The notes beneath the pieces are model-generated. The model saw only the letters and a list, made by a program, of their open reading frames with translations, was not told the DNA's origin and searched no databases. A DNA stretch of 64,000 nt from NCBI RefSeq assembly GCF_036507355.1, contig NZ_AP027877.1; one strand, given 5' to 3'. The position numbers were made by a program, and so were the translations under genes. Each line of letters begins with the position of its first letter. Positions within the stretch are counted from its first letter, which is position 1. Positions 2,842 through 52,059 of this stretch are shown in pieces. The stretch comes from Escherichia coli. Lineage in GTDB: Bacteria; Pseudomonadota; Gammaproteobacteria; Enterobacterales; Enterobacteriaceae.

Positions 2842-3027
2842 TTAACTTTGTAACGTCATAGAGTCAAAGAAAAAGGCAGCCTGTGGTTGCCTTTTGCCAA
2901 TAATTCGCACACATTGCGGGTTACTGCTTTATTTTCGTTCAGTGCTGATAACGAACATCAACCTGCAAAACGAAGCGCATAGTTTAAAATGGCTATCATC
3001 AATACGCTATATCTGATGGAAAAAAAT

Positions 3028-3612
3028 ATGCCTAAACTTATTTTAGCCTCCACCTCGCCCTGGCGTCGCGCTCTTCTGGAAAAACTGCAAATCTCTTTTG
3101 AATGTGCAGCACCCGAGGTCGACGAAACTCCACACAGCGACGAATCACCGCGACAGTTGGTGCTTCGACTGGCACAAGAAAAAGCGCAATCTCTGGCGTC
3201 ACGTTATCCGGATCATTTAATTATTGGTTCAGACCAGGTATGTGTTCTTGATGGCGAAATCACCGGTAAACCGTTAACGGAAGAAAATGCCCGTCTGCAA
3301 TTACGCAAAGCCAGCGGCAATATCGTCACCTTCTATACTGGACTGGCGTTGTTTAATTCGGCGAATGGGCATCTACAAACAGAAGTGGAGCCTTTTGACG
3401 TCCATTTCCGTCACCTGAGCGAGGCGGAGATTGATAATTACGTGCGTAAAGAGCATCCCCTGCACTGCGCGGGTAGCTTTAAGAGTGAAGGATTTGGCAT
3501 TACTCTGTTTGAGCGTTTAGAGGGGCGTGATCCTAACACGCTGGTTGGTTTACCGCTAATCGCGCTGTGTCAGATGTTACGTCGGGAAGGGAAAAACCCG
3601 CTGATGGGATAG
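3028..3612 (+). CDS. yceF: Maf-like nucleotide pyrophosphatase
   Basis: ORF track 2989..3612; start moved to the internal [20 protein letters not shown], giving 194 aa. Confidence 0.88.
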
Positions 3613-3620
3613 TTTTTTGC

Positions 3621-3692
3621 GCCGGATGTGGTTACTTCGCATCCGGCAATCGGTGCTGGCGGCCTGATGCGGCGTAAACGCCTTATCAGGCC
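3621..3692. repeat. REP/BIME-type palindromic elements in the convergent yceF-rluC gap
   Basis: gccggatgtggttacttcgcatccggc followed by ggcctgatgcggcgtaaacgccttatcaggcc, both imperfect palindromes of the classic REP pattern. Confidence 0.6.
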
Positions 3693-3723
3693 AACCGCCC
3701 ATTATCAGGTTTATATGCTTGTA

Positions 3724-4683: not shown

Positions 4684-5255
4684 GGTTGGCGATTCTAATT
4701 AGCCAACAGGATTCGCGCCACTCATTTTTCTATGCTTATATTTACTTTTGCACCTTATTACTTCACTGCGTGATCACTTTATTGATGGTTATTAAACCAA
4801 TCACCAGCAAGAAGTGAAAAAACTGTGAGTAAGCGGGTGATAAATGGTAAAAGTCATCTTGCTATAACAAGGCTTGCAGTGGAATAATGAGGCCGTTTCC
4901 GTGTCCATCCTTGTTAAAACAAGAAATTTTACGGAATAACCCATTTTGCCCGACCGATCATCCACGCAGCAATGGCGTAAGACGTATTGATCTTTCAGGC
5001 AGTTAGCGGGCTGCGGGTTGCAGTCCTTACCGGTAGATGGAAATATTTCTGGAGAGTAATACCCAGTCTGTTTCTTTGATAATTGCGCTGTTTTTCCGCA
5101 TGAAAAACGGGCAACCGACACTCTGCGCCTCTTTGAGCTGACGATAACCGTGAGGTTGGCGACGCGACTAGACACGAGGCCATCGGTTCACACCCGGAAA
5201 GGCGTTACTTTGCCCGCAGCTTAGTCGTCAATGTAAGAATAATGAGTAAGTTACG
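4684..5255 (+). promoter_or_regulatory. rne promoter region and long 5' leader
   Basis: 570-bp non-coding gap upstream of rne; established knowledge that the rne leader is long, structured and autoregulated; promoter positions not determined here. Confidence 0.55.
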
Positions 5256-14110: not shown

Positions 14111-14911
<801 letters not shown>

Positions 14912-14938
14912 TTAGTGACAAAGTGCATATGTCTTCTT

Positions 14939-14973
14939 GCCGGATGCGGCGTAAACTCCTTATCCGACCTACA
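14939..14973. repeat. REP element with adjacent IHF-like motif in the flgF-flgG gap
   Basis: tgccggatgcggcgtaaactccttatccgacctaca, then caaaatcgataaattgcg. Confidence 0.55.
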
Positions 14974-15064
14974 AGTGCTCGCAAAATCGATAAATTGCGA
15001 TTGCCCCCATAGACCCGATAAACTTGCGCATCGGGTAACTTATACTTGTCATGTATCCTTTCAA

Positions 15065-15820
15065 TTAACTCATCGACAGCAGTTGGTTGGCACGGCCTGC
15101 GTTATCATCGACGCTGCTGATCACCTTCATCTGCATTTCAAAACGCCGCGCGCTGGCAATCATGTCGCTCATTGCCGCAACGGTATTGACATTACTGCCT
15201 TCCAGAACACCCGACATCACACGCAAGGTTGGATCTGCCTGCAGTACAGGCCCACGCGTGGCCTGGGTTTCTGCGCTTAAACGAAAAATGCCGTCGTCAC
15301 CGCGCTGCACTTCGCTGCCCGTGGCTTTCACCAGTTTAAGACGCCCTACTGGCGCAACCGTATTTGCCGGATCGCCCGGATTCAGCGCCGAGATTGTGCC
15401 ATCGGCAGCTATCGTGATTTCCGCCCCTTCCGGCACAGCAATTGGCCCCGCCTCGCCTATCACCGGATGCCCCTGAATTGTCAGTTGCCCGGTGGGATCA
15501 ACCTGAATGCTGCCATTACGCGTATACCCTTCGCTGCCGTCAGCGGTCTGCACGGCCAGCCAGCCATCCTGCTGCAACGCAACGTCCAGCGGGCGCGAGG
15601 TGTAATCCATCTTGCCGGGCGTCATGTCTGCACCCGGTGTTGACGCCGTTACCAGCGTGCGCGTAGGCAGTGAAAGCCCTTCCACCGGCACTGCGCGCAA
15701 GGCGTTTAACTGCGCACGAAAACCGGGCGTAGAGGCATTGGCCAGATTACTGGCGGTTACCGCCTGTTGATTCAGCGTCTGGCTGGCTGCTCCCATCGCG
15801 GTATAAATTGCGTGATCCAT
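15065..15820 (-). CDS. flgF: Flagellar proximal rod protein
   Basis: ORF track 251 aa. Confidence 0.95.
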   Translation of the reverse strand: MDHAIYTAMGAASQTLNQQAVTASNLANASTPGFRAQLNALRAVPVEGLSLPTRTLVTASTPGADMTPGKMDYTSRPLDVALQQDGWLAVQTADGSEGYTRNGSIQVDPTGQLTIQGHPVIGEAGPIAVPEGAEITIAADGTISALNPGDPANTVAPVGRLKLVKATGSEVQRGDDGIFRLSAETQATRGPVLQADPTLRVMSGVLEGSNVNTVAAMSDMIASARRFEMQMKVISSVDDNAGRANQLLSMS

Positions 15821-15839: not shown

Positions 15840-17045
15840 TTAGCGTAAGTTAACCAGCGTGTTGAGGATCTGGTCCTGGGTTTTGATGGTCTGGGCGTTA
15901 GACTGATAGTTACGCTGGGCAACGATCATATTGACCAGTTCTTTACTGAGATCGACGTTGGACGCTTCCAACGCACCGTTGGTCAGGGTGCCAAAGTTGC
16001 CCGTCCCGGCTGTCCCCAACAGCGCCACGCCAGAAGATTGCGTCGCAGACCAGACGTTGTCGCCTTCGGATGCCAGACCTTCGTTGTTGGCAAAGTTCGC
16101 CAGTACAATCTGCCCCAGCAGTTGGGTTTGTTCGTTGGAATAGTTGCCGACAACCGTACCGTCATCATTGATTTGATAACTCACGAGATCGCCCGGTTTG
16201 TAGCCGTTCTGGGTGGTTGCCACAATGTTGTTAGCGCCGGTATTTTGCTGCATGGAGTTGAGGAAGCTCAGGCTAAACGTGGCGGGATCTGCGCCGTTAA
16301 TTGCGCCAGTGGTAATATTCTCTGTTGGATTTGAGGTCAGAACGCCATTGGAATTAAACACCAGCGTCATTGCATGGTCAGCTGTGCCTGTTGGATCACT
16401 GCTATCCTGGGTGTAGACCTGCCAGTTATTATCCCCGGTCTTCACAAAGTACACGCTCATGTCATGAGCATTACCCTGACTATCGAAAACAGTCACCGAA
16501 CCTTTTTTGTTATAGCTATCCGCATTGCTGGCATCAAATGTGTTAACAGTAGGAAGCGGATCACTGGAATTCAGGTTGATCTGCATCGACGCCGTGGTGG
16601 TAGTTTTCGCTGCCATCAGGGTATTCGGGATCGAAATATTGGTCGGATTCGCCCCTTGCTGAATAGTCGGCGGCGTACCGGTTGCCGGGTAACCCGTCAG
16701 CTGTAAACCTTGCATATTCACCAGGTTACGGTTTTCATCCAGCTTAAATTGTCCGTTACGGCTGTAGAACACCGAACCGTTGCTGTCTACCAGACGGAAA
16801 AAACCGTTCTGGCTGATAGCAACGTCCAGACCACGCCCGGTGTTGGTGGTCGTGCCATCGGTAAAGTCCTGAGTGATACCGGCAACTTTTACCCCCAGTC
16901 CCACTTTCGAACCGGCAAACATATCGGCAAAAGAGGCCGTGCCTGATTTAAAGCCGTAGGTGGCGGAGTTGGCGATATTGTTGCCAATAACATCGAGGTT
17001 GGTGGCGGCAGCGTTTAATCCGCTAACCGCTTGAGAAAAGGCCAT
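15840..17045 (-). CDS. flgE: Flagellar hook protein
   Basis: ORF track 401 aa. Confidence 0.95.
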   Translation of the reverse strand: MAFSQAVSGLNAAATNLDVIGNNIANSATYGFKSGTASFADMFAGSKVGLGVKVAGITQDFTDGTTTNTGRGLDVAISQNGFFRLVDSNGSVFYSRNGQFKLDENRNLVNMQGLQLTGYPATGTPPTIQQGANPTNISIPNTLMAAKTTTTASMQINLNSSDPLPTVNTFDASNADSYNKKGSVTVFDSQGNAHDMSVYFVKTGDNNWQVYTQDSSDPTGTADHAMTLVFNSNGVLTSNPTENITTGAINGADPATFSLSFLNSMQQNTGANNIVATTQNGYKPGDLVSYQINDDGTVVGNYSNEQTQLLGQIVLANFANNEGLASEGDNVWSATQSSGVALLGTAGTGNFGTLTNGALEASNVDLSKELVNMIVAQRNYQSNAQTIKTQDQILNTLVNLR

Positions 17046-26961: not shown

Positions 26962-27011
26962 TATCCTTTGTGTCCGGCAAAAACATCCCTTCAGCCGGAG
27001 CATAGAGATTA

Positions 27012-35440: not shown

Positions 35441-35815
35441 ATGACCATGTACGCAACGCTTGAAGAAGCCATTGACGCTGCACGCGAAGAATTTCTTGCA
35501 GACAACCCCGGCATCGACGCCGAAGATGCGAATGTGCAACAGTTCAATGCCCAAAAATACGTTTTGCAGGACGGCGACATCATGTGGCAAGTTGAGTTTT
35601 TTGCCGACGAAGGGGAAGAAGGTGAATGTTTACCTATGCTTAGCGGTGAAGCCGCGCAAAGTGTTTTTGACGGCGACTATGATGAGATAGAGATCCGCCA
35701 GGAGTGGCAAGAAGAGAATACATTACATGAATGGGACGAGGGGGAGTTTCAGCTTGAGCCACCGCTGGATACCGAGGAAGGACGCGCAGCAGCTGATGAG
35801 TGGGATGAACGTTAA
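35441..35815 (+). CDS. msyB: Acidic protein MsyB
   Basis: ORF track 35438..35815, very acidic 124-aa protein. Confidence 0.9.
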   Translation: MTMYATLEEAIDAAREEFLADNPGIDAEDANVQQFNAQKYVLQDGDIMWQVEFFADEGEEGECLPMLSGEAAQSVFDGDYDEIEIRQEWQEENTLHEWDEGEFQLEPPLDTEEGRAAADEWDER

Positions 35816-36043
35816 TCACTCATACGGGCCATGATGAATGTCGATCGGCAGCAGTAAAGTATCAAAAACCAGGGAGAATGGCAGATCAAGGATTGTGACA
35901 TAACGCCAGGCGGAGTCACGCACATCCCATTGCACACCGGGATAATATTGGTTGCCATGCCCCTGCCCCGGTATAGTGCGGCTAATGATGCTGCCACAGC
36001 CACTCAGCAAGGTCACCATGATGCTCACCACAATTAAACGCAT
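35816..36043 (-). CDS. yceK: Lipoprotein YceK
   Basis: ORF track 75 aa, MRLIVVSIMVTLLSGC lipobox; stop abuts the msyB stop. Confidence 0.88.
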   Translation of the reverse strand: MRLIVVSIMVTLLSGCGSIISRTIPGQGHGNQYYPGVQWDVRDSAWRYVTILDLPFSLVFDTLLLPIDIHHGPYE

Positions 36044-36106
36044 TTGATACCTCTTCCGTAAAAAAATACCGGCATAACGCCGGTATTTTTATTGGCTCGT
36101 TGTTTT

Positions 36107-36215
36107 TGCCAGATGCGACGTGAACACCTTACCTAACCTACAAAATCTCGCAAAATCAATAAATTGCAGGAACGATGTAGGCCTGATAAGCGTAGCGCAT
36201 CAGGCAACTACGTTT

Positions 36216-36236
<21 letters not shown>
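36107..36236. repeat. REP/RIP-like cluster at the opgH 3' end
   Basis: Two REP-like palindromes (tgccagatgcgacgtgaac..., gtaggcctgataagcgtagcgcatcaggca) flanking an IHF-like aaatcaataaattg core. Confidence 0.55.
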
Positions 36237-40398
<4,162 letters not shown>

Positions 40399-45674: not shown

Positions 45675-46427
45675 GTTGTCACCCTGGACCTGGTCGTACA
45701 TTTAAGAAATTAAATCATTTCAACTTGGTTGTTAACGCAACCTGTATTTTGTTAACGCTGCGTTACGATGGAAAGTATGTCTGCGGAAATATTTTTAATA
45801 ACTCACCCGCGCGTTGTATTTTTCTTTTTTTGTTCATACCAAAGTATTAAAACCCACGTAAATACGCTGTTATCTACGCAAAAAATATTTTGTTTTCTTT
45901 TAAATCTCCGTTTTCCGCTAGCAAAAAACACCAGACAGTCATTCTTCTTGCCCGTCGCTGATTGCTGCGATATGTCTTGCGCACAAGCCGTGACAAACCT
46001 CGTCTTTTTGCAGTAAAAAATTGTCCACGGTGGTGTGGAGAAAAAACAAGAACGTTTTACATGACGAAAGGACTACACCGAAATATTTTTTATATGCATT
46101 ATTAGTAAGTTAGCACCATTTGTATGATTTTTTAAAATTGTGCAATAAAAACCAAATGTACAACTTTTCTATCATTCCTAAACTTAATAAAACCTTAAAG
46201 TTAACATTTTAATATAATGAGTTACATTTAGTTACATGTTTAACACTTGATTTAAGATTTGTAATGGCTAGATTGAAATCAGATGTAATCCATTAGTTTT
46301 ATATTTTACCCATTTAGGGCTGATTTATTACTACACACAGCAGTGCAACATCTGTCAGTACTTCTGGTGCTTCTATTTTAGAGGCAGCTGTCAGGTGTGC
46401 GATCAATAAAAAAAGCGGGGTTTCATC
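45675..46427. promoter_or_regulatory. Divergent csgB / csgD intergenic control region
   Basis: 753-bp non-coding, strongly A+T-rich gap between divergent curli operons; individual binding sites not resolved. Confidence 0.8.
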
Positions 46428-51971: not shown

Positions 51972-52059
51972 GGTGAGGTGTCCGAGTGGCTGAAGGAGCA
52001 CGCCTGGAAAGTGTGTATACGGCAACGTATCGGGGGTTCGAATCCCCCCCTCACCGCCA
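51972..52059 (+). tRNA. serX: tRNA-Ser (anticodon GGA)
   Basis: 88-nt sequence ggtgaggtgtccgagtggctgaaggagcacgcctGGAaagtgtg...ggttcgaatccccccctcaccgcca with long variable arm and T-loop GTTCGAATC, followed by a hairpin plus T-run terminator. Confidence 0.92.

Follow-up and report, generated by a model that had tools for sequence, protein, structure and literature searches.

Imperfect palindromes lying next to an A+T-rich core occupy the spacer between opgH (mdoH) and yceK in Escherichia coli, and the questions raised by this locus are what kind of element they form, whether similar elements occur nearby, and what they may contribute to the adjoining genes. The window considered here, that is, the whole stretch of 64,000 nucleotides that was analyzed, corresponds to approximately 1.09-1.15 Mb of the K-12 chromosome, with its + strand being the K-12 minus strand, and it is 98.6% identical to MG1655 across 49.6 kb (mean divergence from K-12, 1.35%). 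A sequence-only reading had pointed to REP-type imperfect palindromes at three places in this window, and this description was borne out by the sequence itself, by profile searches, and by Rfam models. The three sites, located in the spacers opgH-yceK (site A), flgF-flgG (site B), and yceF-rluC (site C), are wholly extragenic and belong to the REP/BIME family, whose palindromes are dispersed between the genes of E. coli. In the copy of NC_000913.3 that was used, the features at these loci comprise CDS and ncRNA alone, with no repeat_region.

Family membership of the three sites

BIME-1 is also known as RIP (repetitive IHF-binding palindromic element) or RIB (reiterative IHF BIME), and in BIME-2 short linkers join Y and Z2 REPs, most often as tandem arrays. 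The REP has been described as an imperfect palindrome of 30-40 nt with GTAG at its foot, and BIME-1 as a single-copy unit in which one z1 and one y REP, inverted relative to each other, flank a long and well conserved L linker where an IHF site is frequent (PMC3333891). The spacer of site A is 172 bp long and is bounded by opgH (- strand, stop codon 36216-36218) and yceK (- strand, ATG 36041-36043). Its repeat-derived features are the following:

36094..36215, + strand: complete BIME-1 with conserved flanks (nhmmer, 105.7 bits, E=4.6e-32, model positions 5-126 of 138)
36108..36141, + strand: Y-type REP, inverted and decayed, GCCAGATGCGACGTGAACACCTTACCTAACCTAC, with CTAC at 36138-36141, aligning to the Y arm of the BIME-1 consensus
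36142..36176, + strand: L linker of 35 nt, holding the IHF core and matched by RF02751
36153..36166, + strand: IHF-consensus core AAATCAATAAATTG, with a perfect WATCAANNNNTTR from 36154
36177..36205, + strand: Z1-type REP, intact, GTAGGCCTGATAAGCGTAGCGCATCAGGC, with GTAG at 36177-36180, exactly matching the profile consensus over its Z1 arm

The BIME-1 profile comprised 30 copies from other genomes and was used in an nhmmer search of the window. Foreign copies were obtained by scanning one genome per species for the L core GCAAAWTCRATAWATTGC, with at least 120 matches listed; approximately two thirds of the 120 listed matches were chance occurrences in unrelated organisms, many of them apparently in coding sequence, and were discarded. 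Among the matches listed, many complete Y-L-Z1 units were found in E. albertii, two Pseudocitrobacter, and two other Escherichia genomes, and dozens of copies were recovered from other enterobacterial genomes. Perfect Escherichia-type BIME-1 copies were also seen in Desulfosporosinus sp. OT (a 262-bp contig) and in a Bacteroides MAG contig, most likely reflecting enterobacterial contamination of these assemblies.

Within the spacer of site A, the BIME-1 fills the gap from the opgH stop codon to a separate hairpin at 36060-36093. Compared with REP consensus sequences, the Z1 arm gave E=5e-6 and the Y arm E=0.0095. When a 186-nt query covering site A was run by megablast, individual E. coli genomes yielded a median of 17 matching places and up to at least 40. 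The range 36061-36236 given by the sequence-only reading does contain the BIME-1, but it also takes in the separate hairpin and approximately 20 nt of opgH coding sequence. It was probably stretched to 36236 by a REP-like half-site, ACCGGATGCGGCT (- strand, 2 mismatches), at 36225-36237 within the last part of the opgH coding sequence, a match of the kind expected by chance; REP half-sites with two mismatches numbered 13 in the window, with 7.4 expected.

The spacer of site B, 171 bp between the flgG ATG (14891-14893) and the flgF stop codon (15065-15067), lies inside the flgB-J operon with both genes on the - strand, and includes:

14932..15050, + strand: decayed BIME-1 (nhmmer, 79.6 bits, E=5.3e-24, model positions 12-131)
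14939..14972, + strand: Y-type REP, GCCGGATGCGGCGTAAACTCCTTATCCGACCTAC, ending in CTAC (E=1.8e-5 with the Y consensus; partial RF02564 match, 31.7 bits)
14973..15009, + strand: L linker, with the core AAATCGATAAATTG at 14984-14997
15010..15036, + strand: decayed Z1-like arm, TAGACCCGATAAACTTGCGCATCGGGT, in which GTAG is lost and reads ATAG

The A+T cores quoted beforehand for these two sites are exact (aaatcaataaattg at 36153-36166 and aaatcgataaattg at 14984-14997), while their proposed likeness to the IHF consensus holds in different degrees: the core of site A is a perfect WATCAANNNNTTR, but that of site B carries one mismatch to the IHF consensus and fails both WATCAANNNNTTR and WATCARNNNNTTR. 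The mismatch is a G at a position where A is present in all Y-L-Z1 copies among the matches listed. The conserved L linker with an IHF consensus that characterizes BIME-1 was accordingly found in full at site A and in part at site B, where the linker reached only 14 bits on RF02751.

Site C occupies a spacer of 111 bp between the convergent genes yceF (+ strand, stop codon 3610-3612) and rluC (- strand, stop codon 3724-3726), with the following parts:

3621..3647, + strand: first REP-like hairpin, GCCGGATGTGGTTACTTCGCATCCGGC, with no GTAG, 8 nt past the yceF stop codon
3648..3661, + strand: tail-to-tail linker of 14 nt, AATCGGTGCTGGCG, aligning to the inter-REP linker of the RF02564 consensus
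3662..3695, + strand: second REP, GCCTGATGCGGCGTAAACGCCTTATCAGGCCAAC, with CAAC in place of CTAC (profile Y arm, E=9.4e-7)

Neither an IHF core nor an A+T core was found in this REP pair. All three sites had been assigned to convergent gene junctions, which calls for correction: sites A and B lie between codirectional genes, and convergence applies only to site C, the one without an IHF core.

Taken on their sequence, sites A (36094-36215) and B (14932-15050) are BIME-1 (RIP/RIB) elements, with nothing departing from that class in kind. Both follow the order Y REP, CTAC, L linker of approximately 35 nt with an IHF core, GTAG, and Z1, so that Y and Z1 stand head to head (...CCTAC-L-GTAG/ATAG...), and both are present as one unit per locus with no tandem repetition. 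The GTAG/CTAC foot is present in the Z1 and Y REPs of site A and in the Y REP of site B (14969-14972), the exceptions being ATAG in the Z1 arm of site B, CAAC at the end of the second REP of site C, and no such foot in the first. Site A further resembles known members of the class in being single at its locus, extragenic, multi-copy in the genome, and placed in a way consistent with the 3' end of the opgGH unit, the kind of position described for RIBs. Differences within the class concern the Y arm of site A, which is unusually decayed in this strain, and site B, which is operon-internal, has a core G found in no other full copy among the matches listed, and has lost the GTAG of Z1. The composite RIP/BIME arrangement that had been suggested for the two IHF-bearing sites is one on which independent models agree.

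Site C is different and, from its sequence features, is probably a lone pair of REPs, placed tail to tail, that resembles BIME-2/REP325 (3621-3695). It shares tail-to-tail REPs and the same short type of linker with the BIME-2/REP325 unit (RF02564 naRNA4, CssrE), and the BIME-1 profile recognized only its Y-REP portion. It differs from that unit in being single rather than part of a tandem array, in the truncation of its first REP, which is without GTAG, in the CAAC ending of its second REP, and in its score on RF02564, where the pair at 3620-3692 obtained 54.5 bits (E=3.4e-9, local search) and so fell short of the 59.5 bits required for gathering. Its match to the Z2 consensus was weak (E=0.19).

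It might be argued that such palindromes and A+T motifs are products of chance, as the bare IHF consensus WATCAANNNNTTR is not rare, with 10 matches in the window, and loose REP half-site patterns stay near chance expectation, full-length profiles having been used in their place. Because the bare consensus matches 10 times, significance rests on the whole L linker and not on the core alone, and the window contains two copies of the 19-nt L core CGCAAAATCRATAAATTGC, where 0.09 would be expected. Scanning with REP/BIME models gave matches and not a blank, the RF02751 gathering score being reached at site A and the profile E-values being 4.6e-32 and 5.3e-24 at sites A and B. The L-core count, the RF02564 match (E=3.4e-9), and the full-length profile E-values refute a chance origin, the probability of which is negligible. 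Within the 64-kb window, as judged from the profile and from REP consensus sequences, significant REPs are limited to these three spacers.

The ES036 match and the hairpin upstream of yceK

The Rfam model RF02751 (ES036) matches site A at 36142-36184 on the + strand with 40.1 bits, exceeding its gathering score of 37.6, and CssrF, the small RNA of this family, was seen as a northern band of approximately 290 nt from the dacB/yhbZ spacer in Shigella flexneri (PMC3071730). On this basis, an independent sRNA gene of the ES036/CssrF family could be placed at 36142-36184 on the + strand, a proposal that we consider very unlikely. The 43-nt consensus of RF02751 consists of the L linker plus GTAGGCCU, and the model scores above threshold on the L linker of 8 of 13 BIME-1 copies from E. 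albertii, from which it follows that it in effect models the BIME-1 linker and not a gene. The score at site A barely exceeds the threshold, the match runs antisense to opgH-yceK transcription, and a simple promoter scan of 35700-36500 returned no sigma-70-like promoter. Site A resembles ES036 (CssrF) in passing the RF02751 gathering score and differs in being a sequence match only, whereas CssrF is a transcript of approximately 290 nt from another spacer; a literature search for ES036 by name yielded no relevant match. RF02751 matches labeled as ES036 sRNA are copies of the BIME-1 repeat and should not be read as sRNA genes.

Between the BIME-1 and yceK, and outside the BIME, folding identifies one further feature:

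36060..36093, no strand assigned: hairpin AAAAAAATACCGGC-ATAAC-GCCGGTATTTTTATT, with A/T runs on both sides

This hairpin, 17 nt upstream of the ATG of yceK, has a 12-bp stem containing 5 G:C pairs and a 5-nt loop; its predicted folding energies are -18.2 kcal/mol (z -3.8) for the - strand and -17.9 kcal/mol (z -4.6) for the + strand. The stem is followed by U7 on the - strand and by UUUUUAUU on the + strand, giving the G+C-rich stem-loop and subsequent U-run of an intrinsic terminator. A simple terminator scan of 35700-36500 called an alternative weak hairpin and missed the one at 36060-36093, probably because an A:U extension of the stem uses up the T-run. The form AAAATACCGGC-N5-GCCGGTATTTTT, 5' of the yceK ribosome-binding site, is kept in E. 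albertii, E. marmotae, S. enterica, and C. freundii. From these predicted structures, 36060-36093 looks like a candidate bidirectional intrinsic terminator, serving opgGH on the - strand and possibly mdtG-msyB on the + strand. Its stem-loop, upstream A-run, downstream T-run, and cross-genus conservation are those of bidirectional intrinsic (Rho-independent) terminators, while its location 17 nt before the yceK ATG is unlike that of a typical intrinsic terminator.

On the far side of yceK, msyB (+ strand) and yceK (- strand) are arranged tail to tail with zero spacer, their stops falling at 35815 and 35816, respectively. Since the two genes abut, msyB transcripts would run antisense through the whole of yceK before reaching any terminator. 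The T-runs on both strands, together with this abutment of msyB and yceK, make two-way termination possible, and the hairpin may terminate both the opgGH and the mdtG-msyB transcripts. Given a candidate terminator 17 nt upstream of its start codon, yceK would then depend on read-through for its expression.

Conservation and decay at the three junctions

Comparison of the same junctions across strains, which had been put forward as a check on the family assignment, was carried out on 5426 complete E. coli genomes. Site A was present with at least 80% coverage in 5381 and fell below this threshold in 45; site C was present in 5418. At flgF-flgG, E. coli is dimorphic: 3461 genomes (approximately 64%) carry the BIME-1 allele and 1945 (approximately 36%) carry another insert.

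Orthologous opgH-yceK spacers in other species were located through YceK homologues. The spacer of C. freundii, 76 bp long, has no REP and keeps the hairpin; that of Salmonella contains one unrelated REP-like palindrome, with the hairpin kept and the BIME absent; and that of E. albertii retains the hairpin and only remnants of the BIME. In E. marmotae, Y and L are retained (E=7e-22), and exactly 35 nt are missing, GCCTGATGCGCTACGCTTATCAGGCCTACATCGTT, which correspond to the Z1 REP plus 6 nt; this difference has the appearance of a precise REP loss or gain. From the presence of the hairpin in Salmonella and Citrobacter without the BIME, of the E. marmotae spacer without Z1, and of mere remnants in E. 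albertii, we infer that the BIME-1 of site A was inserted in a lineage-specific manner, next to the opgH stop codon and in front of a hairpin that was already there. The conserved feature of the opgH-yceK junction is the hairpin upstream of yceK, not the REPs.

These orthologous spacers also bear on the proposal that site A is no repeat at all and represents a dedicated yceK regulatory region, with a promoter and an IHF-dependent control element. Its position directly upstream of yceK and its perfect IHF core would suit such a region, but in Salmonella, Citrobacter, and E. albertii both yceK and the hairpin are present and the L linker is missing, the scan of 35700-36500 detected nothing promoter-like, and the sequence belongs to a multi-copy family, which together render the proposal highly improbable.

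Within site A, the parts have changed unequally. Relative to K-12, the Z1 arm shows 0 differences and the Y arm 7 in 34 nt, against a mean of 1.35%, so that among the 34-nt stretches of the 49.6 kb it ranks third in density of differences. In the E. coli lineages that were compared, L (including the IHF core) and Z1 are nearly invariant, and the substitutions of the Y arm are lineage-specific. The changes in the Y arm relative to K-12 are mostly G-to-A and C/T transitions. This concentration of changes might reflect hairpin- or gyrase-associated mutagenesis, or REP gene conversion, rather than plain relaxed constraint.

At flgF-flgG, an orthologous copy in Escherichia sp. SCPM-O-B-8794 has an intact GTAG (GTAGGCCCGATAAGCTTGCGCATCGGGC) and the core ATTCAATAAATTG, with its Y arm internally deleted. 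As this genome retains GTAG and that core, the TCGAT and ATAG states of the window and K-12 look like derived decay. The alternative allele is an unrelated insert of approximately 103 nt with a G+C-rich palindrome, CCCTCTCCC..GGGCGAGGG, which may be BoxC-like, and the two alleles (window 14923-15059) share 29 nt adjoining flgG. Ten further contigs recovered by a FlgG look-up fell into the same two spacer length classes as E. coli, with no outgroup among them. The two inserts could constitute a natural polymorphism that shifts the expression of flgB-F relative to flgG-J between lineages. A joint reading, in which the two flgF-flgG alleles form an expression polymorphism and the Y arm of site A is a mutation hot spot beyond relaxed constraint, is regarded as unlikely.

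All three elements are repeats of a non-autonomous type; they were inserted, within the Escherichia lineage, into spacers that already existed, and they now differ in their rates of decay. Both BIMEs are absent or broken in sister species. Lineage-wise decay of the Y arm, replacement of site B in 36% of genomes, and losses in sister species suggest that any host function of these elements is weak or dispensable.

Possible roles at mRNA 3' ends and in the nucleoid

Transcript stabilization and nucleoid organization are the textbook roles of the REP family. REPs have been described as terminators, mRNA stabilizers, and topological insulators (PMC3333891), and they are reported to interact with gyrase and Pol I (PMC3333891, PMC12306157, PMC6379681), and gyrase is described as favoring the y REPs found in BIME-2 (PMC6379681). 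RIBs located at the 3' ends of transcription units are bound by IHF, as PMC12306157 states with reference to Boccard & Prentki 1993. According to PMC12306157, close to half of the REPs in E. coli could stall ribosomes immediately ahead of the stop codon. The main text of one IHF ChIP-seq paper contains no mention of REP/BIME or of the genes considered here, and a literature search on yceK with IHF and REP returned nothing relevant.

A place at the 3' end of a transcript would fit site A, which has the opgH stop codon on one side and the conserved terminator-like hairpin on the other, but not site B, which is internal to the flgB-J operon. At the DNA level, by analogy with other members of the family, IHF would most likely bind site A at 36154-36166 and bend it sharply, and contact of the REP arms by gyrase or Pol I may occur; site A would then be one of many minor nucleoid or topology sites. 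At site B, where the core G is found in no other full copy among the matches listed, IHF binding is probably poor, and strong binding has probably been lost.

At the RNA level, the sense (- strand) transcript of the opgH-yceK spacer folds with z -4.1 relative to shuffled sequences, and the BIME alone with z -4.25. In the predicted RNA fold of site A (- strand), Z1 and Y pair as a long hairpin capped by a stem-loop of L, followed by the hairpin of approximately -18 kcal/mol and its U-run. On the mRNA, Z1 starts 10 nt past the opgH stop codon, a distance at which REPs are reported to stall terminating ribosomes (PMC12306157). In this folding model, the 3' end of the opgGH mRNA would carry either the Z1 hairpin alone or the long Z1:Y hairpin with the L stem-loop at its tip, ahead of 36060-36093, which would act as the opgGH terminator. 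By analogy with characterized REPs, the Z1 or Z1:Y structure should slow 3'-to-5' exonucleolytic decay. Because the structure lies within 15 nt of the stop codon, ribosome stalling at opgH is possible, and the structure may stall terminating ribosomes and so modulate both the output of opgH and read-through into yceK. Similar structures may form inside the flgB-J mRNA at site B. The overall account, in which REP/BIME identity is joined to a mechanism of the family type drawn from the literature, is held with high confidence.

The main competitor to this account treats the three loci as selfish or neutral relics, namely decaying RAYT-mobilised repeats with no selected role, whose IHF and hairpin effects would be incidental. 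The 7 differences in the 34 nt of the Y arm, compared with a mean of 1.35%, and the lineage-specific nature of these mutations are what such relics would display, as are the mutated IHF core and GTAG of site B, the exchange of the site B allele in 1945 genomes, the deletion of Z1 in E. marmotae, and the loss of most of the element from E. albertii. Set against these observations are the fact that, at site A, L and Z1 hardly vary among the E. coli lineages that were compared, and the presence of the element in 5381 of 5426 genomes, although zero changes in 29-35 nt at a background divergence of 1.35% are weak evidence of constraint. We regard the relic reading as a serious possibility, rated somewhat short of an even chance. 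It differs from the family-type account only in the function allowed, the identity of the elements being the same in both.

Everything described here belongs to known BIME-1/RIP and REP biology, and nothing new is present. The importance of the three sites is small. REP/BIME-1 elements proved recognizable without tools, and what was added is a corrected gene context. For research on REP dynamics, the two flgF-flgG alleles and the Y-arm hot spot offer minor leads.

Elsewhere in the window, Rfam matches reaching the gathering score fell at expected places:

46281-46372: ES056 sRNA
2866-3034: SraB
4895-5231: rne 5' UTR element (rne5)
26962-27011: PyrC leader
51972-52056: tRNA

The densest divergence from K-12 was observed at 16311-16392 of the window, where two 34-nt stretches contain 18 and 13 differences; judged from gene order, this segment should fall within flgE.
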